Source of the DNA: Chiloscyllium plagiosum | Taxonomy: Eukaryota | Length of the DNA: 52,143 nt | Direction: 5' to 3' | Assembly: GCF_004010195.1 (NCBI RefSeq) | Contig: NC_057718.1 | Coordinates: forward strand, 61,486,095-61,538,237 | In this document: piece after piece, positions 7,655-47,853 of the stretch | Numbering within the stretch: position 1 is the stretch's first letter | Layout of the letters: each line of letters begins with the position of its first letter | The notes under the pieces: model-generated | What the model saw: only the letters and a program-made list of their open reading frames with translations | Database searches by the model: none | What the model was told of the DNA's origin: nothing | Position numbers and translations under genes: made by a program

Positions 7655-7938
7655 CGCATGGTGGCTCAGTGGTTAGCACTGCTGCCTCACAGCACCAGGG
7701 TCCCAGGTTCAATTCCAGCCTTGGGTGACTGTCTGTGTGGAATTTACATATTCTCCCTGTGTCTGTGTGGGTTTCCTCCCACAGTCCAAAAGATGTGCAG
7801 GTCAGGTGAATTGACCATGCTAAATTGTCCATGGTGTTAGTCAGAGGGAAATGGGGCTGGGTGGGTTACTCTTCAGAGGATCGGTGTGGATTTGTTGGGC
7901 CAAAGGGCCTGTTTCCACACTGTAAGTAATCTAATCTC
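7655..7938 (+). mobile_element. HE1-type V-SINE
   Basis: tRNA head TGGCTCAGTGG (A box)..GGTTCAATTCC (B box); V-domain GTGTGGAATTTACATATTCTCCC..CCCACAGTCCAAAAGATGTGCAG; CR1-like tail AAGGGCCTGTTTCCACACTGT with TAATC repeats. Confidence 0.92.
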
Positions 7939-8249: not shown

Positions 8250-9165
8250 AGAAGTGATAATCCAGTGGTATTATCACTGATCTGTTAATGCTGAGACCTA
8301 GCTAATAGAGTCATAGAGTCATAGAGATGTACAGCACGGAAACAGACCCTTCGGGGGTCCAACCCGTCCATGCCAACCAGATGTCCCAACCCGATCTAGT
8401 CCCACCTGCCAGCACCCGGCCCATATCCCTCCAAACCCTTCCTATTCATATACCCATCCAAATGCCTTTTAAATGTAACAATTGTACCAGCCTCCACAAC
8501 ATCCTCTGGCAGCTCATTCCATATATGTACCACCCTCTGCGTGAAAACGTTGCCCCTTAGGTATCTTTTATATCTTTCCCCTCTCATCCTAAACCTATGC
8601 CCTCTAGTTCTGGACTCCCCAACCCCAGGGAAAATACTTTGTCTATTTATCCTATCCATGCCCCTCATAATTTTGTAAACCTCTANNNNNNNNNCCTCCG
8701 CGCTCCAGGGAAAACAGCCCCAGCCTGTTCAGCCTCTCCCTGTAGCTCAGATCCTCCAACCCTGGCAACATCCTTGTAAATCTTTTCTGAATCCTTTCAA
8801 GTTTCACAACATCTTTCCGATAGGAAGGAGACCAGAATTGCATGCAATATTCCAACAGTGGCCTAACCAATGTCCTGTACAGCCGCAACATGACCTCCCA
8901 ACTCCTGTACTCAATACTCTGACCAATAAAGGATAGTGGAATTTGAAATCAATTAAAATATGAGTTAAGGTTCTAATGAATGGATTATCAAGAGAAAACC
9001 CATCTGGTTTACCAATGTACTTTAGAGAAGGAAAGTGCCATCTTTACTTGATCCAGGCTCCATATGACTCCAGAACCACAGCAATGTGGTTGACTCTTAA
9101 GTACCCCCTGTGCAAGAAATACCAGTGTTGCCAGCAATGCCCTTATCCCATGAATGAGTTTTTAA
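8250..9165 (+). mobile_element. tRNA-derived SINE (family of 2206-2539) split by a CR1 insertion
   Basis: Head AGTGGTATTATCACTGATCTGTTAAT at 8263-8290; body resumes near 8935 and includes CCACAGCAATGTGGTTGACTCTTAA and the ATCCCATGAATGA tail. Confidence 0.75.
8306..8932 (-). mobile_element. Young HER1/CR1 LINE 3' fragment
   Basis: ORFs 8652-8891 and 8396-8668: LYRTLVRPLLEYCMQFWSPSYRKD..LSYRERLNRLGLFSLE..FTQRVVHIWNELP; tandem CTATGACT tail. Confidence 0.95.
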
Positions 9166-9199: not shown

Positions 9200-10100
9200 G
9201 AGTTAATCTCACCAACAATCTATCCTGGTCCATCTATGTCAATGCCACAGTCAAGAAAGCACACCAATGCCTGTACTTCCTCAGAAGGGTAAGGAAATTC
9301 ACCACATCCACAATGACTCTTATTAATTTATATAGATGCACCATATAAAGCATCCTAGCCAAATGCATGACAGCTTGCTATGGCAATTGTTCTGCCAAGA
9401 CCACAGGAAATTACAGGGAGTTGTGAATGCAGCCCAGTCCATCACAAAAACCAACCTTCTATCCATTGAGTACATCTACACTTCCTGCTGCATCAGGAAA
9501 ACAGCCAACATAATCAAAGACCCCTCCTGCCCTGGGTATACTCTCTTCCACCCTTGTCCATTGGGCAGAAGATACAAAAGTTTGAAAACATGAATGAGCA
9601 GATTTAAGGTCAGCTTCCTCCCTGCTGTTATCACACTTATGAATGGCCCTCTCGTATATTCGGAGCAACACGGTGGCTCAGTGGTTAGTACTGCTGCCTC
9701 ACAGCACCAGGGACCTCGGTTTAATTCCAGCCTCAGGTGATTGTCTGTGTGGAGTTTGCGTATTTTCCCTGTGTCTGTGTGGATTTGCTCTGGTTTCCTC
9801 TGACAGTCCAACGATGTGCAGGTTAGAGTGGATTGGCCATGGGAAATGCAGGATTATAGGGAGAGTGGTGGGTCTGGGTGAGATGCTCTTCAGAGAGGTG
9901 ATATGGACTCAATGAGCTAAATGGCCTGCTTCCACACTGTTGGAGCTCTGTGATGTTAAAGTTGATCCTCTCTGTGGGTGTAACACTCATTGTTCTGTTC
10001 TATTGCCCTGATGTACTTATGTTAGGTATGATTTGTCTAGTTAGCATGCAATACAATACTTTTCACCATGCCTCAGCACACATAACAATAATAAATTAAA
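9200..10100 (+). mobile_element. Rex1/Babar-like LINE 3' fragment interrupted by HE1
   Basis: Translates VNLTNNLSWSIYVNATVKKAHQCLYFLRRVRKF..YTSCCIRKTANIIKDPSCPGYTLFHPCPLGRRYKSLKT, characteristic of the Rex1 RT C-terminus; 3' UTR ends ACAATAATAAATTAAATC. Confidence 0.85.
9663..9955 (+). mobile_element. HE1-type V-SINE
   Basis: A/B boxes, V-domain and GGCCTGCTTCCACACTGT tail. Confidence 0.9.
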
Positions 10101-13230: not shown

Positions 13231-14235
13231 TGTTATGATGTTGGAGACATGTATTGTACCTTTAAGAGAGAGTGAATGCTGTTCTGAACTGAGAGATTAT
13301 AAGCACCTATGTCATATGACAAAACAACAGTCTCAGAGTGTACTGGAAAATTGAAACTATGTAACATTTGGCTGTGAAATAGATACCCGAGTTGGCTGCT
13401 GTTTTGACAACAATTCAAATTTAACCAGTTTAAACAATGCTCCAGAATACTAAAAGCTGAATAATGTGTTGCTGGAAAAGTGCAGCAGGTCAGGCAGCAT
13501 CCAAGAAGCAGGAGAATCGACGTTTCAGGCATAAGCGCTTCTTCAGGAAGGGCTTATGCATGAAGAAGGGCTTATGCCTGAAACATCGATTCTCCTGCTC
13601 CTTGGATGCTGCCTGACCTGTTGCGCTTTTCCAGCAACACATTTTTCAGCTCTGATCTCCAGCATCTGCAGTCCTCACTTTCTCCCAGAATGCTAAAACT
13701 CAATTGAGTTTGGATTAATTGTTTTGCCAACTTCAAACCAATGAGATGATCTGATTTCAGGGCTATAAAAAAGGCAGGCATGTTGAAAATCAGACAGAGC
13801 AACTGCCATCATCACAGACCCAAGAAATTAGGAAATACTCCCTCAAAATACCCTTTCAAATGAAACATATTTGCGTAAAGAGAAAGGAGACAAGCCAGGG
13901 AAGTCTTCAACCGGAAGGAAGCAGACACCAAAGACAACAGCCGCTGTATGATTTTAAAATTAAGCTGATGTATTTTGATAAGTGTTTTATTGGAACAGTA
14001 TATTGCTATAGAGTTGGAGGCAGACAATAAGCAGTTAAGAGAAAGGGGGCTTAGAGTTGTAAATAGTTGTTTAATGTTCACTTTTAGAGTTTTAAAAAAA
14101 ATTGATGTATTTGCTTTAAATAGTGAAATCTGGGGAGTTCTCTGTTACTCATACTTTAACAGATTACAAGGTGAGGTGAGCCTTTCTGGGTGTTTGGGTT
14201 TAATTAACAGAAGGGTTCACCACTATGTCGTAATA
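13231..14235 (+). repeat. 5' LTR of the Gmr1-type element
   Basis: Starts TGTTA; 13956-14235 aligns with 18891-19168; followed by the PBS-like sequence. Confidence 0.9.
13456..13684. mobile_element. Palindromic Penelope-derived (pLTR) insert with hammerhead-like core
   Basis: Inverted arms; TGAAGAAGGGCTTATGCCTGAAAC; TSD CCAGAAT(A/G)CTAAAA at 13442-13455 and 13685-13698; same family as 44227-44450. Confidence 0.85.
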
Positions 14236-23329: not shown

Positions 23330-23862
23330 AGCTAAAAGTGAGAAAGATCGAAATGGTATATAGTAGCTTTCACAAACTAAGAACATCTCAAAATAATTTA
23401 CAATCAATGAAGTACTTTGGAGTGCGGGCCCCATTGCAATGCAAGAAATGCAACATCCAATTTAGGCACAGCAATCTCCCACAAGCAACAATGTGAGAAT
23501 GTCCAGATATTCTGCCTCCAGTGGGTGAATGAGGGGTGTACATTGACCAGGACACAAGGAAGACCATCAATGCTCCTCTTTGAAAGAATGCCATGAGATT
23601 GTGGGTGGCATCAAACTGAAAGACAGGGTGTCTGGGAATGTAGTGCTCCCTCACTACTTCGCCAAATTGTCAGTCTTGTCTTTGTGCTGCTGTTGGAATG
23701 ATCACACAACCTTCTAATCTGAGAGGTGCGGTGGCAAAGTCTCTCTGCTTCGAAAGCTAGTGTGCTTCCAATTAAACCTGTTGGACTATAGCCTGGTGTT
23801 GTGTGATTTTTAACTTTCTAATCTGAGGTGGGAATGCTGTTACTGAGCCATTATTGACACCT
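23330..23862 (-). mobile_element. Deu-domain SINE (SacSINE1/AmnSINE-like)
   Basis: Plus strand CTCCTCTTTGAAAGAATGCCATGAGAT..GTGCTCCCTCACTACT..ACAACCTTCTAATCTGAG..ACTGAGCCA..TGACAC matches my recollection of the reverse-complemented DeuSINE core and tRNA head. Confidence 0.75.
23724..23815 (+). mobile_element. Short Penelope pLTR-derived insert (second family)
   Basis: CGAAAGCTAGTGTGCTTCCAATTAAACCTGTTGGACTAT..; 12-bp TSD TTCTAATCTGAG at 23712-23723 and 23816-23827; reverse copy at 32838-32975. Confidence 0.8.
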
Positions 23863-28122: not shown

Positions 28123-28442
28123 GGACAGCACAGTGGCTCAGTGGTTAGCACTGCTGCCTCACAACGCCATGGTCCCAAGTTTGATTGCAGCCTTGGGAGA
28201 CTGTCTGTGTGGAGTTTGCACATTCTCCTCATGTCTGCGTGGGTTCCCTCCGGGTGCTCCAGTTTCCTCCCACAGTCCAAAGATGTGCAGGTCAGGTGAA
28301 TTGGCCATGTTAAATTGCCCATAGTGTTAGGTGCATTAGTCAAAGGGAAATGGGTCTGGGTGGGATACTCTTTGGAGGGTCGGTGTGGACTGGTTGGGCC
28401 GAAGGGCCTGTTTCCACACTGTAGGGAATCTAATCTAATCTA
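28123..28442 (+). mobile_element. HE1-type V-SINE, full length
   Basis: tRNA head, V-domain, CR1-like tail and TAATC repeats. Confidence 0.93.
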
Positions 28443-30236: not shown

Positions 30237-33188
30237 TGATGTGATTTCAGTGTTCTTACCCTTTATAAATGTGTGGATAAGAAACTGGATATGGATGTTT
30301 TGGTATTGAAAACTCTAACTGTCATTTATTAGTTATTATATACAAGAATAACATTCACAAGCACATTCTGGGCCTATATTCAGTGATTAATTTACACAAA
30401 GCAACACGCTTCCAGTATGTCATGTTTTAAGGGATCTAGTTCAGAAGGATTATGAGATTTTTCCTTTAGGTCACATGATATAATGCTGTGATGATATCAC
30501 AAGCATATCTTATAAAGAGATGCTGAGATACCAACTGTGAGGTATAACACAACATTCCCCTTTTGCCAAAGATGAAAAATTAGTCCAAAGAAATATTCAT
30601 GGCAGATAGTGTCAATTTGATAATTGTACAAACATGTGAAACAGAATTTACAAGATTAATATTTCAAACTTCAGAGTTTGACACCTTCTCCTGTTCCAGT
30701 GAGGTACATTATTCACTGTTGCATTCGTTTGACAACGTGATTGTCCTGCTGCTGGTTTCTGTCATTCAAAATCATCGCACAATCATTGCTGGACTGTGCT
30801 TGCTCATTTTCTTTGTACACGATTCGTGTACTGCACATCGGTCTGAACTGGTTTCTGCTTCTTCACAAAACAGTACTGTGAACGTCATGACCTAGTATAA
30901 TCCGATGAGCTATCTATTTTAGAGATCATTCTGGTATCCAAGTATTTGTTTTTGCATGTGTACTTCACAATATCTGCCCAGTACATAGTTTTGTAGTTAA
31001 CTCATGTTTCTCTTACATGCTCCTAGGCATTTGAAAGAGAATGTTCTATGTCTCCAAATATTTAGACAATTGGTTGCTGGGTCAGCTCATTCACATTTGC
31101 CTTCTAAGTGTGAGTTGTACTGGGGATGGTAATCCCTTTAATGGTATTGCATGAAAATATAATGGTGCAATGTCAACATTTTACTTTGTTTCTTGACACC
31201 TAATGATATTGATGAGTCATGCATTCTGCTAGATGACCCAATACAAGTCTATGTTTTGCAATGGTCTCTTGTAGGCCTGTACCATGAAGTTCATGTCTTT
31301 CAGGATATATCATGGTAATATTTTAGCACTAGCTGTGTCTTGGTCTGAGGTCTGGCTTAGCCTTTGGAGCCAGATTTCATGCTGGACAGGCTTTAGGTGT
31401 ATACAATAAATTATATCTGCAGATGTTGTTAGTGTCATGCACTTTGCTGACCATAGCAATAGTTTAATAGCAATAGTATGTAATTGATATTGACCTGCAA
31501 TTATGGGTTCATATTTGTATCCATCCTCAAGTAATACTGCTTATGGTAAGGCCATTTTCCTGCCTAAAAAAACTTCCCTCAAGTTTTAAATTAGTGTAGA
31601 GCTGATGACTAATTCAATGAGTCACTCTGTGGAAAAGTCACAGCCTTTGTTGTGACGTTGTCAATTAAATTCATCAATAGAGTCTTGAAGTAACATGAAA
31701 TGAAGTTTGTTAATCCTGAAGACAATTCTTGTTTTGAACAGGTCATTGGAAGCTTTCCAGATCTTTTCTAGATTTCCAATTGTCCATGTAAAGACTAGAT
31801 GTGTTAATTATCCAAAATTTGTCCATGTCAATGACAAGTAAGATTTTTAGAACTCTTTTCTTGGGACCATATATTGTTTGGTCTATAACAGAGAACTGCT
31901 TATGTTGTCTGAATAGTTGTAATTCAGAAAAGCTGTCACCAGATGCTGCTCAATACTTAATTAAATCTCTCACTTCTCTTTGTGGGCTTTTATTTTGTTT
32001 GAGGTAGAGTTCATTGCAATTGTTTTCTATTTTCACTGACTTTGCTTCTATTTCCCTTTTTTTAAACTTCTAACTCCCTTTATTTTCCCTGTTTCTGCTG
32101 TTTTAAGAATTGCAAGCTTGTGGTGTAAGAAATTAAGGCTTATAGTAGCAAGTTTCTGCCTGAAGGTGGTATTTGTACCAAATATGTGGTGATATGGGAT
32201 GTGGCCATTCTATTATTTTGTGCCAATTTAGAGAATAACAGAGTTGGTCAATGTCGTTTTACAGGTATGACCTCTTAATATAGAAAACTGCTTTATTAGT
32301 GTTTTAAGGATGCAATTTCTTTTTTGATGGTGTGCTTTCAGGACAATTTAATTTTCTTTAGATTAGATCAGTCTCTTGTGTTTATTTTGTTTTAAGTGGG
32401 GCAGATATGCTCACTATCTTTCTGAAGAAATCAGTAGCCTATAGCTTGATTGTAATGTAAATTTAGTATTTTTGTTTTTAAGTAAAGCACTCTTTGAATT
32501 TTCCTTATTTGAAAAAAACTTAACATATTTGAATCAAAGAGAGTTAGCTCTATCTTCTTTGTTGTCTTCAGATCTCTTCCATTTTCTGTACTTCCATGTA
32601 TGATGTCCAAAGCTGTTTGGTCTTCAATTAGTTTCACAAATATCTGACACCAAGGCATAGGCTTTCTGTATAGATGGTCACCACTGCTGACCATGGTTAG
32701 AATTTGCCTCCAACAGGGTGCTTTTAGCTGATGTATAAATGCTTATGTTATCTCCTGTAACATTAGAAATTGTGGTATTGAAGAATTCAAGGGATATTCA
32801 TTGCACCTAGTTATTATATACAAACAATATATTTACATGATTTGGAGATGTCGATGTTGGACTGGGGCATACAAAGTTAAAAATCACACAACACCAGATT
32901 ATAGTCCAACAGGTTTAATTGGAAGCACACTAGCTTTCAGAGCGACGCTCCTGATGAAGGTGTTGTGTGATATTTAACAATATATTTACAGGCATACTTG
33001 CCCATGCTGACATTATTGCAATAAGCTGTGAAGAAAAGATTGCTTCCAGTAGCATGCCATGCTTCATGGGATCCCAGTTCAGATGGAGAATGAAATCTTT
33101 TTACCTACAGATCACATGCTGGTGCAGTGATGCTGTCATGAGATTCTGCTTAAAGATATATTCATAAACTGTGAGATATAACACAACA
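30237..33188 (-). mobile_element. Ancient, internally deleted gypsy-like LTR element
   Basis: Two diverged ~310-bp LTRs both starting TGTTGTGTTATA(C/T)CTCACAGTT on the minus strand (33188 and 30554); PPT AAAAGGGGAA at 30555-30564; integrase C-terminal remnants AIPLKGLPSPVQL..RRQ and TWIP..VL*RSRNQFR. LTR 3' ends approximate, no TSD seen. Confidence 0.75.
32838..32975 (-). mobile_element. Penelope pLTR-derived insert with short inverted end and split hammerhead-like core
   Basis: 15-bp TSD AACAATATATTTACA at 32823-32837 and 32976-32990; minus strand GGAGCGTCGCTCTGAAAGCTA, plus strand CTGATGAAGG. Confidence 0.85.
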
Positions 33189-33326: not shown

Positions 33327-36300
33327 TTTTTTAAAATTCAATTTTGGGACTTGGGCATCGCTGACTAGCCAACATTGATAGCCCATACCTATTTGCCCTT
33401 GAGAAAGTGGTGGTGAGCTGCCTTCTTAAACCTCTGCAGTCCACCTTTGTGGATTGACCCACAATGCCATTAGGAAAGGAATTCTAGGATTTTGACCCAA
33501 TGACTGTGAAGAAATGGCAGTATATTTCCAAGTCAGGGTGGTGAGTGGCTTGGAGGGGAACTTGCAGGTGGTGGTCTTCCCAAGTACTTGCTGCCTTGTC
33601 CTTCTAGATGGAGGTGGTTGTGTTTTTGGAAGGTGCTGTGTAAGGATCTTTGGTGAATTTCTGCAGTACATCTTGCGGATCGCACACACTGCTGCTACTG
33701 AGCGCAGGTAGTGGAGGGACGGAATGTTTATAGGTGTGGTGCCAATCAAGCGGGTTGCTTTGTCCTAGATGGTGTCAAGGTTCTTAACCTTGGAGCTGCA
33801 CCCATCCAGGCAAGTGGGGAATATTCCATCACACTCCTGACTTGTGCCTTGTAGATAGGCTTTGGGCTGTCAGGAGGTGAGTTACTCATTGCAGTACCAT
33901 AGTCTCTGACCTGCTCTTGTAGCGACTGTGTTTCTGTGGCGAGTCGAGTTGAGTTTCTGGTCAATGGTAACCTCAAGGATGTTGACAGTGGGGGATTCAG
34001 GGATGGTAATACCGCTGAATGTCAAGGGACAGTGGTTAGAATGTCTCTTATTGGTGATGATCCTTGTCTGACGTTTGTGTGGCACAAATGTTTCTTGCCA
34101 CTTGTCAGCCCAGGCCTGGATATTGTCCAGATTTTGTTGCATTTGAGCACGGACTGTTTCAATATCTGAGGAGTTGCGAATGGTGCTGAACACTGTGCAG
34201 TCATCAGCGAACATGCCCACTTCTGACTTTATGACAGAGGGAACGTTACTGATGAAGCAACTGAAGATTGTTGGGCCTAGGACACTACCCTGAGGAACTC
34301 CTACAGAGATGTCCTGGAGCTGAGATAACTGACCCTCCACAATCACAGCCATCTTTGTTTGTACCAGGTATGGATCTAACTAAAGGAATGTTTGCCCCCA
34401 GATACCCATTAATTCCAGTTTCGCCAGGGCTCCTTGATGCCGCACTTGGTCAAATGCGGCCTTGATGTCAAGGGTTGTCACTCTCATCTCACCTCTGGAA
34501 TTCAGCTCTTTTCTCCATGTTTGAACCAAGCCTATAATGAGATCAGGAGCTGAGTGACCCTGGTGAAACCCAAACTGGGAATCACTGAGCAGATAATCAC
34601 TTTAGTGATGATTGAGAGGCGACGGATTGGGTGGTAACTGGCCGGGTTGGATTTGTCCTGCGTTTTGTGTACAGGACATACCTGGGCAGTTTTCCACATT
34701 GTTGGATAGATGCCAGTGTTGTAACTGTACTGGAAGAGTTTGGCTAGGGAAGGAGCAAGTTCTGGAGCACACGTCTTTCAGTAGTATTGCTGGAATGTTA
34801 TCAGGGCTCATTGCCTTTGCAATATCCAGTGCCTCCAGCCATTTCTTGATATCACGTGGAGTGAATTTGCTGGAGACTGGTATCTGTGATGCTGGGGACC
34901 AGTGGACGAGACTGAGATGGATTATCCACTCGGCACTTCTGACTGAAGATTGTTGAAAATGCATCAGCCTTATCTTTTGTGCTGATATGCTGGGTTCCTC
35001 CATCACTGAGGATGGGGATATTTTTTGGAGCCTTCTCCTCCAGTGAGTTGTTTAATTGTCCACCACCATTCACAATTAGATGTGGAAGGACTTCAGAGCT
35101 TAGATCTGATCCATTGTGGGATCACTTAGCTCTGTCTATTATTTGCTATTTATACCGTTTGGCATGCAAGTGGTCCTGTTTGGTAGCTCCACCAGGTTGA
35201 CACCTCATTTTCAGGTATGTATGATGCTGCTCCTGGCATGCTCTCCTGCACTTTCCATTGAACCAGGGGTTGATCTCCTGGCTTGATAGTAATGTTTGAG
35301 TGGGGGCTATACCAGGCTATGAGGTTACAGATTGTGCTGGAGTACAGTTCTGCTACTGTTGATGGCCCACAGCACCTCATGGATGCCCAGTCTTGAACTG
35401 CTAGATCGGCTCGAAGTCTGTCCCATTCAGCACAGTAATACTGCCATACAACATGATGAAGGTTGTTCTCAATGTGAAAGCGGGACATCGGCTCCACAAG
35501 GGCAGTGTGGTGGTCACATTTACCTAAACTGTCATGAACAGATGCCTCTGCAGCCGACACATTAGTAAGGTATGCTTTTTCCTCTTGTTGGTTCCTTCAC
35601 CACCTGCCACAGACCCAGCCTAGCAGTTACATCCTTTAGGATCTGACCAGCTCAATCAGTAATGCTGCTGCTGAGCCACTCTTGGAGGTGGACATTGAAA
35701 TCCCCCACCCAGAGTACATTTTGCACCCTTGCCACCCTCAGTGCTTCTTCCAAATGTTGCTAAACATAGAGGAGTACTGCTTCATCAACCTAAAGAGGAC
35801 AGTGTGTGGTAACTAGTAAGATGTTTCCTTGCCCATGTTTAACCTGAAGCTATGAGACCTCTTGGGGTCCAGAGTCGATGTCAAGGACTCCCAGGGCAAC
35901 TCCCTCCTGACTGTATCACTGTGCCGCCACCTCTGCTGGGTCAGTCCTGCTGGTGACACAGCACATATCCAGGGATAGTGATGGTGGGGTCTGGGGTGTT
36001 AACTGTAAGGTATGATTCTGTAAGAATGACTATGTCAGGCTGTTGCTTGACTAGTCTGTGAGACAGCTCTCCCAGTTTTAGTACTAGCCCCCAGATGTTA
36101 GTAAGGAGGACTTTGCGTGGTCGACAGGGCTGTTTGTGTTTTTGCCGTGGTCATTTCTATTTCCAAGGTCGAAGCCAGGTGGTCCATCTGGTTTCATTTC
36201 GTTGTTGTGACTTTCTAGTGACTGATACAACTGAGTGGCTTGCTAGACCATTTCATAGGGCAGTTGAGAGTCAACCACATTGCTGTGGCTCTGGAGTCAC

Positions 36301-36420
36301 ATGTAGGCCAGACAGGTAAGGATGGCAGATTTCCCTAAAGGACATTAGTGAACCAGATGGGTTTTCCAACAACTGACAATAGTTCCATGGTCATCAGTTG
36401 ACTCTTAATTCCAGATTTTA
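33327..36420 (-). mobile_element. Near full-length CR1/L2-group LINE with a single EN+RT ORF and no ORF1, decayed
   Basis: APE N-terminus KVLLTNIWGL..PDIVILTESYL..IPGY..RGGG from 36114; DH motif [27 protein letters not shown] (ORF 33882-34352); A-rich tail near 33327; 36200-36420 is SINE-like. Confidence 0.9.
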
Positions 36421-43545: not shown

Positions 43546-43875
43546 AGGGTGGCTCAGTGGTTAGTACTGCTGCCTCACAGCACCAGGGACCCAGGTTGGA
43601 TTCAAGCCTCAGGCGACTGTCTGTGTGGAGTTTGCACATTCTCTCCATGTCTGTGTGGGTTTCTTCCGGATGTTCTGGTTTCCTCCTGTAATTCAAAGAC
43701 GTGCAGGTTGGTGAATTGGCCATGCTAAATTGCCCATGGTGTTCAGGGATGTGTAGGTTAGGTGCATTAGTCAGGGTAAATAGAGGGGAACGGGTCTGGG
43801 TGGGTTAATCTTTGGAGGGTCGGTATGGACTTGTTGGGCTGAAGGGCCTGTTTCCACACTGTGGGTATTCTATAA
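43546..43875 (+). mobile_element. HE1-type V-SINE
   Basis: A/B boxes, V-domain, AAGGGCCTGTTTCCACACTGT tail. Confidence 0.92.
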
Positions 43876-44226: not shown

Positions 44227-44450
44227 GGAGAAAGTGAGGACTGCAGATGCTGGAGATCAGAGCTGAAAATGTGTTGCTGGAAAAGCACAGCAGGTCAGGC
44301 AGCATTCAAGGAACAGGAGAATCGACGTTATGGGCATAAGCCCATCTTCAGGAATTCCTGAAGAAGGGCTTATGCCCGAAACGTCAATTCTCTTGTTCCT
44401 TGGATGCTGCCTGACCTGCTGCGCTTTTCCAGCAACACATTTTCAGCTCC
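44227..44450. mobile_element. Palindromic Penelope-derived insert with hammerhead-like core
   Basis: About 100-bp arms centred on GAATTC (44352-44357); CTGAAGA-A-GGGC-TTAT-GCCC-GAAAC-GTC at 44358-44385; perfect 15-bp TSD GATCCCTCTCTTATA (44212-44226, 44451-44465). Confidence 0.9.
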
Positions 44451-46395
44451 GATCCCTCTCTTATATGCTAGTACCAATTCACTCACTGGCTTTAGACATC
44501 AGAATTGGCTTATGTAAAGGAAATTGGAGTATTAAAATCATCTAAATCTTTGACTGAGTGGGTGGGTTTGGTGCCATTTCTAACTCTGCTCGATTCCCGC
44601 ACTCTATGCTTTAAAATTTAATTTGGTGATACTATAATTGGGCTATGCTGATGAAAAGATCGTTTGTTGCTGAAATTGAACAGCATTTGTCAGAGAGCAT
44701 CATTATCCATTCAAATAAACCAAAGAGTTTTCTGTGAGAATCAGTTAAGTCCAAGACAGTCGTACAGCAGAATATAGAACAGCTGACAGCCTTCAACTCA
44801 AAAGTAACACTATGAACTACAGCAAACTTTTCTTATGTTTTTGTGACAACAAATACCATTTAATGACAATGACATTCATTTGAAAGCAAGTTGAGGAACC
44901 AACCTAGTCATAAACACATTATTGTGTCTCTAACAACACCTGTGGAAGAGTGGAGTATTAATCAATAGTTGGGGTCTTTTCATTCAATCATGTTATCAAC
45001 ATGTGTGTGCAGTGACAAACTTATTTGGGGCCCAGTGTCAGCAGCTATCAGTCTCTAATATGGAAGCTTAAAACAACCCCATATTTACTGGATGTTATGT
45101 TGCAAACGAGTCAGCAAAATAATTCTAGTCCATTCCTTCCAATTTTGGAGGACCACTTGAAAATGTCAACTAGATTTTGTTTTTTGGCCAAGCCACAATT
45201 ACTTATATACTGGAACAGTAGACAATTGTCAGATAGTATGATACATGTGCTCTGCAAGTTGTTTCTTAGTTTATTATTTGTTGGTGTTTCATCCTGGACC
45301 ATTTTCTTTTACTGGTGGCTAGCCATGACCTTCCACTCTCAGAGACAGAAGCCAGGTCCCAGTCAACCTCAGCCAGAACAGGAGTTGCACTTTTGGCGTT
45401 ATTCTGAACCTCATGCCAGCTAACGGAACTAAGCAGATCCCAAATGATCAGATACACCATTGTAACAGAAGTACCTTGTGCCCATTTTGCAGCAATTGTT
45501 TTTGCCATTTGAATTGATAGATAGATTGATACAATTACTTCACTTCAGGCCAAGAAAATGATCACAGCTAGGAAGATGGTTTGATTCAACAAACCTTAGG
45601 CCCTTTTAAATCATTCACTGCACATTGTCACTGGAATGGGATAATCGCATCTACGCTGCACATTTGTAATCAAAAGATGAAACATTTTAATAGCTGATAG
45701 ATTTTATGATCTATTGAAAAAGAAAAGTTGGATGTGATGTTTTAAAATTAAATTGCCAATTACTTCTTTGAGGGAAATATTGGGTCAGGACCCGTCATCC
45801 AAGTGATTCTTGGGTGTCAGACTGAGACTGAGACTGATCTTGCCCTTTTTATGCACTGTCACTCATCCAGTACGTTTGGTACAACAAGCATAATGTATTA
45901 GACAGCACTTAGCAGTTAGCAGTTAGGTTGAGAAACAATATTCTCAGTCTCTGATTAATATACTATATGCAGTTCAATGGAAGAGGGAATTACATTCTGG
46001 ATTACCTGGTATAGTTTTGATGGACTATGCTGCTTTATAGGTAGCAATATTACATGATCATACAATGTGAAATCCTTATATTCCTTCAAGAAGTTAAATA
46101 GTCATCAATCCACCAACTTTGTAACTGAACAACGCTTTCCACCAGCTTACATGTAACAAAAAGTATGTTTTGAGAAGATGGGTGAAAGAGTTGACATATC
46201 GAATGTCATGGAAGTGAAGAATGGATTTTTATATTTAGTTTTGGCATCCAATACTTCAGGGTCAGTGTGGAATAACTTAGTCCCAAGGTAAAGTTGGGTA
46301 ACAACTCTGTTGTGCAAGTAGCATTCTTTAATCCCAAAGTCAAAATAAATGTTCCCTGTGGTCCCAATGTCAACATTTGCATTCCTCATACATCG

Positions 46396-46764
46396 AATCA
46401 TAAAGTGTGGAACGAGGCTACTCAGCCCAGCGAGTCTGCATTGACCCACCAAAGAGCATCCCACCAAACCTCCCACCCCCCGCCACCCATCCAACACATT
46501 ATCCCTGCAACTTCAAATTTATCTTCAGCTAATCCACCCAGCAGACACAAACCGAGACACTATAGACAATTTTTAGCATGGCCAATCCATCAAACCTGCA
46601 CATGTTTGGACTGTGAGAGAAAACCAGAGCACCGAGAGGAAACCTACATAGACACAGGCAAAATGTGCAAAATCCACACAGACAATCATCCGAGGCTGGA
46701 ATCAAACCTAGGTCCCTGGAGCTCTGAGGCAGCAGTGCTAACCACTGAGTCACCCTACCGTCCC
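46396..46764 (-). mobile_element. HE1-type V-SINE, diverged
   Basis: Reverse complement of HE1 head, V-domain and tail. Confidence 0.88.
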
Positions 46765-47562
46765 ATATCTCCCAGCCATATTGCCTTAAAAAAAAGCGAC
46801 AAAATCCTTGCCAAATGACTGGCATTTTCTAATGTGAGCAGATTTCCCTGTCAAGGAATTGACCACCCTGATAAACTCTGCTCAATTTTAACTTACATTG
46901 CATTCCATGTACAGGAATATCAAAGTATTATATAACAAAAGGTCATCACAAGTCATTTATTTTATGCCATCAGATATGGTTAATGTTATCTGCAATGCAC
47001 TTAGATTGTTGAAACTACATTTTCATAAGAACTGAGAAAGCATTAATTTCAATTATATTCCTCATCATCTGTCACTGCAATGTATGTAAGGCAGAAACAC
47101 AGCTCATGAAAACTCTAGGACATAATCAGAAAGTTCTGCACGTGAGCAATAAAAGGTTAGAGACATGGGAAAGGTTCGTTACAGATGGCGTTAATTGTAC
47201 GTGTCATCTGAAAAAATTGCCAGGTTATTATTCTGGACAACGATTTATTCAAGATGCTCAGTGCAGTATTCAATTGTTCAGCGTTTGGCTATGTGTATCT
47301 GTTAAATGTCATTTATGCTACTGGTTCAAAGTGGGTATGTTGACTGAGAATTGGGAACTAGTTGAAAACAAACCATTGGAAGGATGAGAGTGTGGAGACA
47401 TTTTAATAGCAATGTAAATAAAGCTCCTGTTTAAACACAGAAACTGGTGTAATCTCTGTATTTCTCTGAGACAAAAAATAATATACACCTACAAATGTCA
47501 TCATCAGAGTGCCTTGAGAGGAAAGGTCAGTCACATCCAATAACTATTTCAGGTCCACAATT

Positions 47563-47853
47563 AAATTCCCTACAGTGTGGAAACAGGGCCTTTGGCCCAA
47601 CCAGTCCACACCGACCCTCCGAAGAGTAACCCACCCAGCCCCATTTCCCTCTGACTAACTGACCTAACACTATGGGGCAATTTAGCATGGCCAATTCACC
47701 TGACCTGCACATCTTTGTACTGTGGGAGGAAACCCACGCTGACATGGGGAGAACATGCAAACTCCACACAGACAGTCACCCGAGGCTGGAATCGAACCTG
47801 GGATCCTGGTGCTGTGAGGCAGCAATGCTAACCACTGAGCCACCATGCCGCCC
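47563..47853 (-). mobile_element. HE1-type V-SINE
   Basis: Minus strand GGGCGGCATGGTGGCTCAGTGG..GGTTCGATTCC, V-domain and tail. Confidence 0.93.

Follow-up and report, generated by a model that had tools for sequence, protein, structure and literature searches.

LINEs are conventionally regarded as Pol II transcripts and SINEs as Pol III transcripts, a textbook split stated in the available text of PMC10886601. Among the LINEs, Zenon elements are reported from five elasmobranchs by Stuart et al. 2026 (PMC13343379), whose accessible text describes them as universally lacking ORF1 and ending in a poly-A tail, the consensuses having been built by automated extension with a second 5′ round. In the accessible text of a whale shark preprint (10.1101/443036), CR1-Zenon-like LINEs are named no further than as a class. 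Zenon elements are linked to short retroelements as well: Zenon tails are described as driving tRNA SINEs in bivalves (PMC11481361), and the butterfly SIDE Persaeus is a short element that has the 5′ and 3′ ends of Zenon as a result of internal deletion, with neither tRNA homology nor a Pol III promoter according to the available text (PMC6740152).

Bipartite SINEs, composed of a tRNA head followed by LINE 5′ and LINE 3′ parts, are known for RTE and Vingi (Bov-tA, SINE2-1_ACar); Kojima 2018 proposed that SINE bodies originate from LINE 5′ ends, and the donors given in the accessible part of that paper belong only to RTE and Vingi, with the head added to the SINE alone (PMC5786205). A partial precedent for a headed LINE comes from the same source, where RTE-1_DAn and related elements, of a clade different from Zenon, are described as carrying tRNA-like sequence that matches SINE heads. 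R2 is a single-ORF LINE that is transcribed together with rDNA and cleaved by a ribozyme, its processed RNA having been proposed to be translated from an IRES, and in one R2 subfamily a template jump added a 5′ extension from a small RNA (U12) (PMC3414825, in the portion available). Finally, sharks are described as hosting tRNA-headed DeuSINEs, including SacSINE1, which combines a Deu body with an L2 tail (PMC5499810, PMC4824008, PMC7245038).

Here, we analysed a 52,143-nt stretch of the Chiloscyllium plagiosum genome (hereafter, the window) that contains a LINE copy on the minus strand and three copies of a SINE that shares both of its ends (Table 1). Judged from its sequence, the element is a decayed elasmobranch Zenon LINE of the CR1 group. 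Like the elasmobranch Zenon consensuses in the accessible part of PMC13343379, which are about 3.3 kb long, it has the same exact leader words, no ORF1, an endonuclease followed by a reverse transcriptase (EN-RT) and an A tail, and it differs from them in being decayed and headless. As in Persaeus, there is a short partner that appears to have arisen by internal deletion, but the shark LINE consensus and the SINE are both tRNA-headed. The SINE has the same three parts as the RTE and Vingi bipartite SINEs, whereas its donor belongs to the CR1 group and has a head on the autonomous consensus itself. In contrast to R2, no Rfam ribozyme was detected in the window, and, unlike SacSINE1, the SINE has a Zenon tail and did not pass a check for Deu motifs.

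Table 1. Coordinates of the Zenon copy, its parts and the partner SINE copies, numbered from the first letter of the window
Feature	Start	End	Strand	Remark
Zenon-type LINE copy, decayed and clipped at its 5′ end; comprises leader, EN-RT frame and 3′ tail	33327	36420	-	
Leader common to the SINE body	36255	36420	-	not a Deu domain by motif check
LINE-specific leader	36115	36254	-	conserved ATG at 36197 (uORF MKPDG...)
APE-type endonuclease region, stops and frameshifts	35571	36114	-	tblastn of P0134/P0132/P0135
Reverse transcriptase domain (RVT_1), one internal stop	33882	34601	-	Pfam match
Only internal sense T4 run of the Zenon copy	34956	34959	-	
3′ tail with terminal A run, common to the SINE	33327	33400	-	
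Complete partner SINE: tRNA-like head, LINE leader, LINE tail	2195	2540	-	
Second SINE copy, split by a CR1 piece	8265	9165	+	
Third SINE copy, truncated at the first letter of the window; only body and tail	1	175	+	

The Zenon assignment is based on the exact match of 5′ leader words; the reverse transcriptase (RT) tree holds no named Zenon reference. In Supplementary Table 2 of PMC13343379, where the comparison covers the first 400 characters of each consensus, a 24-nt word of the leader occurs in six of the seven elasmobranch Zenon consensuses and a 17-nt word in all seven (five species: CarCar, HypSab, RhiTyp, ScyCan and SquAca); both words are absent elsewhere in the searchable text of the supplement. 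Among proteins, gene models of the whale shark (62% over the RT) and one of the horn shark come closest. In a quick RT tree, the element joins whale shark P0123 (support 100) within an 88-supported group that also includes P0134, P0132 and L002, a locus from the control set described below. Canonical CR1 elements have an esterase ORF1 and group with vertebrate CR1; the Zenon copy has no ORF1 and is separated in the tree from the CR1 pieces of the window. As expected of Zenon, it encodes an APE endonuclease and an RT in one frame, now broken by many stops and frameshifts, and ends in a short, decayed A run (33332-33327). Two pieces of this frame jointly account for the Pfam RVT_1 match (34601-33882), and a 77-aa piece of the endonuclease taken alone had no Pfam match.

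The preliminary description of this DNA had pointed to an endonuclease too close to the 5′ end to leave room for ORF1. This is borne out by the layout, given that only 306 nt lie between the 5′ end at 36420 and the start of the endonuclease motif KVLLTNIWG at 36114, and that tblastn alignments of full-length relatives from invertebrates extend from 36147 or 36114 to about 33600. The layout is the same in the Zenon consensuses and, because all Zenon elements lack ORF1 according to the accessible text of PMC13343379, the absence is real but ordinary. The copy lacks the tRNA-like head of about 120 nt found on the family consensus and starts at an A run, about 120 nt into that consensus; no resemblance to the head is detectable in the sequence upstream of 36420 (214 of 2000 shuffles score as well), and no target-site duplication was found at the ends of the copy. 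Three weak Rfam matches, all to miRNAs, lie elsewhere in the window, with none, ribozymes included, on the Zenon copy. Folding of the leader of this decayed copy gave no signal (z 0.46), and RNAalifold applied to four decayed copies yielded weak helices with little covariation.

Zenon copies are present in very high numbers: in run X1, 184,579 contigs match the element, and the depth rises from about 28 in the flank to tens to hundreds of thousands inside. Naturally intact copies are listed in PMC13343379 as 1 of 1419 and 3 of 612. Leader and endonuclease are joined in 6 of 24 contig pieces among those listed, one of which has 57 differences and no gaps, and a whale shark gene model (P0001) runs from the leader into the endonuclease, so that the linkage of the two is a family trait. 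Scans of metagenomes for the leader-endonuclease junction gave no match, and a viral scan gave four weak, uninformative loci.

All seven elasmobranch Zenon consensuses start with a tRNA-like head, which is followed by an A run, the leader of the window copy, a conserved ATG (missing in the SquAca-3 consensus) and the endonuclease, in that order. An A-box-like word was read in the heads by eye. A search with four B-box words gave six matches, all in Zenon consensuses, and the seventh consensus has a variant that is one base shorter; the A- and B-box words are kept across the five species, whereas the rest of the head varies. A tRNA head with A and B boxes on the full element had been predicted from the window alone and is indeed present at the level of the family consensuses, and neither an ORF1 nor a non-tRNA 5′ end was found, given that the consensuses run from tRNA head through leader to endonuclease. 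No such head was seen in the first 400 nt of the Zenon rows from hagfish (two) and coelacanth (one), and with ARAGORN none was detected upstream of any of the 51 invertebrate-type control LINE loci with more than 250 nt of flank, two of which had a stray B-box word.

Neither the head nor the partner SINE is taken up in the main text of PMC13343379, which contains no match for ‘tRNA’ or ‘Deu’, and ‘SINE’ occurs there only in the title of a reference. A search of mainly openly accessible literature returned no tRNA-headed Zenon and no Pol III-transcribed autonomous LINE. The family is a known one, and its unusual 5′ end has apparently gone unremarked. The co-occurrence of head and endonuclease comes from consensuses and was seen in no individual genomic copy, the contig pieces compared here being shorter than 360 nt, with the head outside the compared stretch. 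For most families in the available tables of PMC13343379, the top insertion is nearly as long as the consensus (3299/3288, 3299/3293, 3322/3314, 3220/3283 and 2870/2886), with a poorer fit in two (3240/3096 and 4347/3244), in a column that the text leaves undefined; these values suggest that single copies span the head. Automated 5′ extension could have recruited the abundant SINE and so supplied the head, and an artefact of consensus building accordingly keeps some small probability as its source.

The preliminary description had also identified the leader with the body of a SINE whose other copies carry tRNA A and B boxes. The first part holds, with the leader (36420-36255) matching three SINE copies in the window at 74-88% (2-105, 2264-2416 and 8994-9106); the boxes are found in one of the three. 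In the complete copy (2540-2195), the head spans 2534-2446, contains an A box at about 2529-2519 and a B box at about 2467-2456, and folds into a tRNA-like cloverleaf with a long variable arm, which ARAGORN detects at a relaxed threshold only and not at default settings. Of the head, the second copy retains a fragment (8265-8306); between this and the rest of the SINE lies a CR1 piece (8309-8933), which is younger than the SINE copy because it is inserted within it, and in the third, any head falls beyond the start of the window.

A feature that had gone unnoticed is that the SINE copies end in the 3′ tail of the LINE (for the three copies, scores as good were reached by 0, 4 and 0 out of 2000 shuffles). 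Furthermore, loose ends at position 36257 that continue as the LINE tail were found in 970 contigs of run X12, 188 contigs of run X16 and 84 RNA reads of run X21, and the depth over the SINE body exceeds that of the adjacent LINE-specific sequence more than 10-fold. Given the leader match, the shared tail and the loose-end joints, the SINE consists of the head, the LINE leader and the LINE tail, and has the appearance of a LINE from which the coding middle has been removed. We also considered a Deu domain as the identity of the SINE body and rejected it: three of four short Deu motifs were absent at two mismatches and one 8-mer matched with one mismatch, in a comparison of short motifs. In the accessible text on the nurse shark elements NSRE1 and NSRE2, no link to the Zenon partner SINE was found.

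In the B2 SINEs of the mouse, runs of four or more T terminate Pol III transcription effectively, as described in the available text of PMC12101331, and the preliminary description had drawn attention to the scarcity of such runs on the sense strand. The count stands: there is one T4 run between 33337 and 36420 (34959-34956) and no T5, with a second T4 (33336-33333) beside the A tail, and even the internal run is possibly copy-specific decay, as a deep contig of run X12 (depth 306.7) has no T4 at 34959. How strongly the runs are depleted varies with the control. The single run compares with 6.3 expected under base shuffling (16 of 2000 shuffles as low), but the difference is not significant relative to dinucleotide (3.6 expected; 190/2000), trinucleotide (2.1; 620/2000) or synonymous codon shuffles (3.9; 32/500). 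Eleven other LINE pieces in the window hold 31 T4 runs in 6867 nt (binomial p ~1e-4), these pieces being richer in T than the Zenon copy (0.27 vs 0.23).

As an external control, we used the 73 of 80 EN-RT loci that passed a length filter, which come from presumed eukaryote-type contigs within MAGs. Their median T4 observed/expected ratio is 1.18, compared to 0.19 for the Zenon copy, with 1 of the 73 lower and 4 below 0.3. Among the 164 four-letter words that contain neither CG nor TA, TTTT shows the strongest depletion; runs of G4 are also few (3 vs 5.3-8.6 expected), and variant terminators (TVTTT) show no significant depletion (275/1000). L002, the nearest control in the tree and a member of the same group, has one T4 in its 2859-nt ORF (29/500) and a T5 and a T6 in its 3′ UTR. 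Because this relative is equally T4-poor in its ORF, the scarcity may in part be a trait of the clade or of composition. Overall, the T4 scarcity is real and compatible with Pol III transcription, suggestive but not decisive.

The control set yielded some observations of its own. Two related EN-RT loci, L075 (2998-5031) and L041, are strongly T4-poor despite 29% T, with no tRNA head found upstream; L075 has one T4 run compared with 8.6 by codon shuffle (0/500), and its relative L031 is not T4-poor. The locus L002 (1-3099) is a compact Zenon-like element with an ATG-started ORF, a long poly-A tail and a GA microsatellite; it lies in a bacterial MAG and is probably host contamination. More generally, the 80 loci (L001-L080) include dozens of intact animal-type LINE ORFs in prokaryote bins, pointing to contamination of these bins with host DNA.

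The earlier statement that no in-frame ATG precedes the endonuclease is correct in substance, as no open one does in the window copy. Upstream, the endonuclease frame contains a single ATG (36345), from which it stays open for just 24 codons; the uORF start closest to the endonuclease (36197) lies in a different frame, relative to which the endonuclease is at -1. The same -1 relation was read by eye in the HypSab consensus and is found in another copy with zero gaps, and an upstream ATG in the endonuclease frame is present in the SquAca-2 consensus, which is gapped, and in the whale shark gene model P0002. The stretch corresponding to 36115-36254 is open in the endonuclease frame of the consensuses and rich in arginine, similar to the N-terminus of P0134, whose alignment reaches 36147 on the window copy. 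In L002, an ordinary in-frame ATG is located just before the endonuclease. On these grounds, the shark family probably either starts translation at a non-AUG codon or uses a -1 shift, with no choice to be made between the two, and no conserved canonical -1 slippery heptamer was seen by eye. Stop read-through from the ATG at 36251 was rejected, as the spacing to the next ATG is 46, 46, 46, 45, 42 and 38 nt in six consensuses (by eye) and this ATG is not in the endonuclease frame in the window copy. A raw RNA run (X21) contains 2254 matching reads, more of them in one orientation and towards the tail, of which 96% run into unlike sequence; no start site was seen among them, and, as they do not separate autonomous transcripts from copies inside host RNAs, they were not counted as indicating expression.

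We tentatively prefer, at close to even chances, a model in which the head is the internal Pol III promoter of an autonomous element, and the SINE is its deletion derivative. Pol III would start at the head and run through the terminator-poor body to the A tail, and the uncapped RNA would be translated by a cap-independent route, with initiation either at a non-AUG codon within the arginine-rich stretch before the endonuclease or at the upstream AUG that is conserved, followed by a -1 shift. The protein would then bind the 3′ tail and insert the element by target-primed reverse transcription, as is general for LINEs and presumably applies here; incomplete copying would have left the window copy headless. 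The SINE would have been born when a headed LINE lost its interior, and would be parasitic on the LINE through the shared tail. As to the order of events, the head may have come to the LINE first, or the LINE may have joined a pre-existing SINE. The bolder evolutionary version, somewhat more doubtful than this model, is that shark and ray Zenon is as a whole a Pol III-transcribed, autonomous, protein-coding LINE that captured a tRNA promoter before the shark-ray split, purged T-run terminators over 3.3 kb, has its uncapped RNA translated with no normal AUG and gave rise to a SINE of its own through loss of the coding middle.

The main competitor, to which we give a distinctly lower but substantial probability, accepts the head as a real part of the LINE and has the RNA made by Pol II, as the available text of PMC10886601 states for non-LTR elements. 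The head would then be a passenger, an element that supports Pol II, or a signal for processing of the RNase P/Z type, resembling a tRNA, that releases the element from read-through transcripts, as the ribozyme does in R2. Such a scheme accommodates the consensus heads as readily as it does the weak T4 statistics, and it agrees with the precedents of R2, with its RNA processed from a co-transcript and its proposed IRES (PMC3414825), and of the butterfly Zenon and its deletion derivative, neither of which has a Pol III promoter according to the text available (PMC6740152). The window copy begins right at the A run behind the head, which suits this scheme, and the tail of related copies includes AATAAA, usable by either polymerase. 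What it explains less well is that, in heads that otherwise vary, the A- and B-box words are kept in five species, and that sense T4 runs are far rarer than in most LINE controls, with no T5.

It is rather improbable that the true 5′ end of the LINE is headless and that the SINE is of the known type, a tRNA head plus a bipartite LINE derivative, with the consensus heads stemming from recruited SINE copies or occasional chimeras. The headless window copy, the more than 10-fold excess of SINE-body depth, the automatic extension of the consensus 5′ ends (PMC13343379) and the head-plus-bipartite SINEs described for RTE and Vingi in the accessible part of PMC5786205 would all fit; yet the same head recurs in five species, the top insertion lengths are near those of the full consensus, and the consensus length minus the head agrees with the span of the window copy. 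As for the window copy being a one-off chimera or a SINE body nested before a truncated LINE, the missing target-site duplication is what could be cited in its favour, and the leader-endonuclease joints in other copies, in all seven consensuses and in the whale shark model P0001 refute it, leaving it next to no probability. Taken as a whole, the reading of the preliminary description, a tRNA-headed EN-RT retroposon that avoids Pol III terminators, is partly supported: T4 depletion is seen relative to base shuffles and other LINEs, but not relative to dinucleotide or codon shuffles, and L002 shares it.

A LINE with a conserved tRNA head blurs the split between Pol II LINEs and Pol III SINEs. 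If Pol III is indeed the polymerase, this would be a natural 3-kb Pol III RNA encoding a protein of about 950 residues, and the cap-independent translation of such an RNA is directly testable. A headed LINE also opens a one-step route to the birth of a SINE, by deletion of its middle. The head and the relation between LINE and SINE are worth recording even if Pol II transcribes the element.

Several other repeats were encountered in the window. A second, unrelated family of tRNA-headed SINEs, possibly HE1-like, is represented by copies at 7656-7935, 9666-9943, 28133-28434, 43546-43872, 46529-46766 and 47560-47848, some of them with a clear B box. Two further short repeats (33042-33188, 30408-30554 and 32870-32938, 23752-23820) are located just past the 3′ end of the LINE. 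A near-palindromic repeat of about 230 nt is present in two copies (13455-13685 and 44227-44454), with weak Rfam matches to miRNA hairpins.
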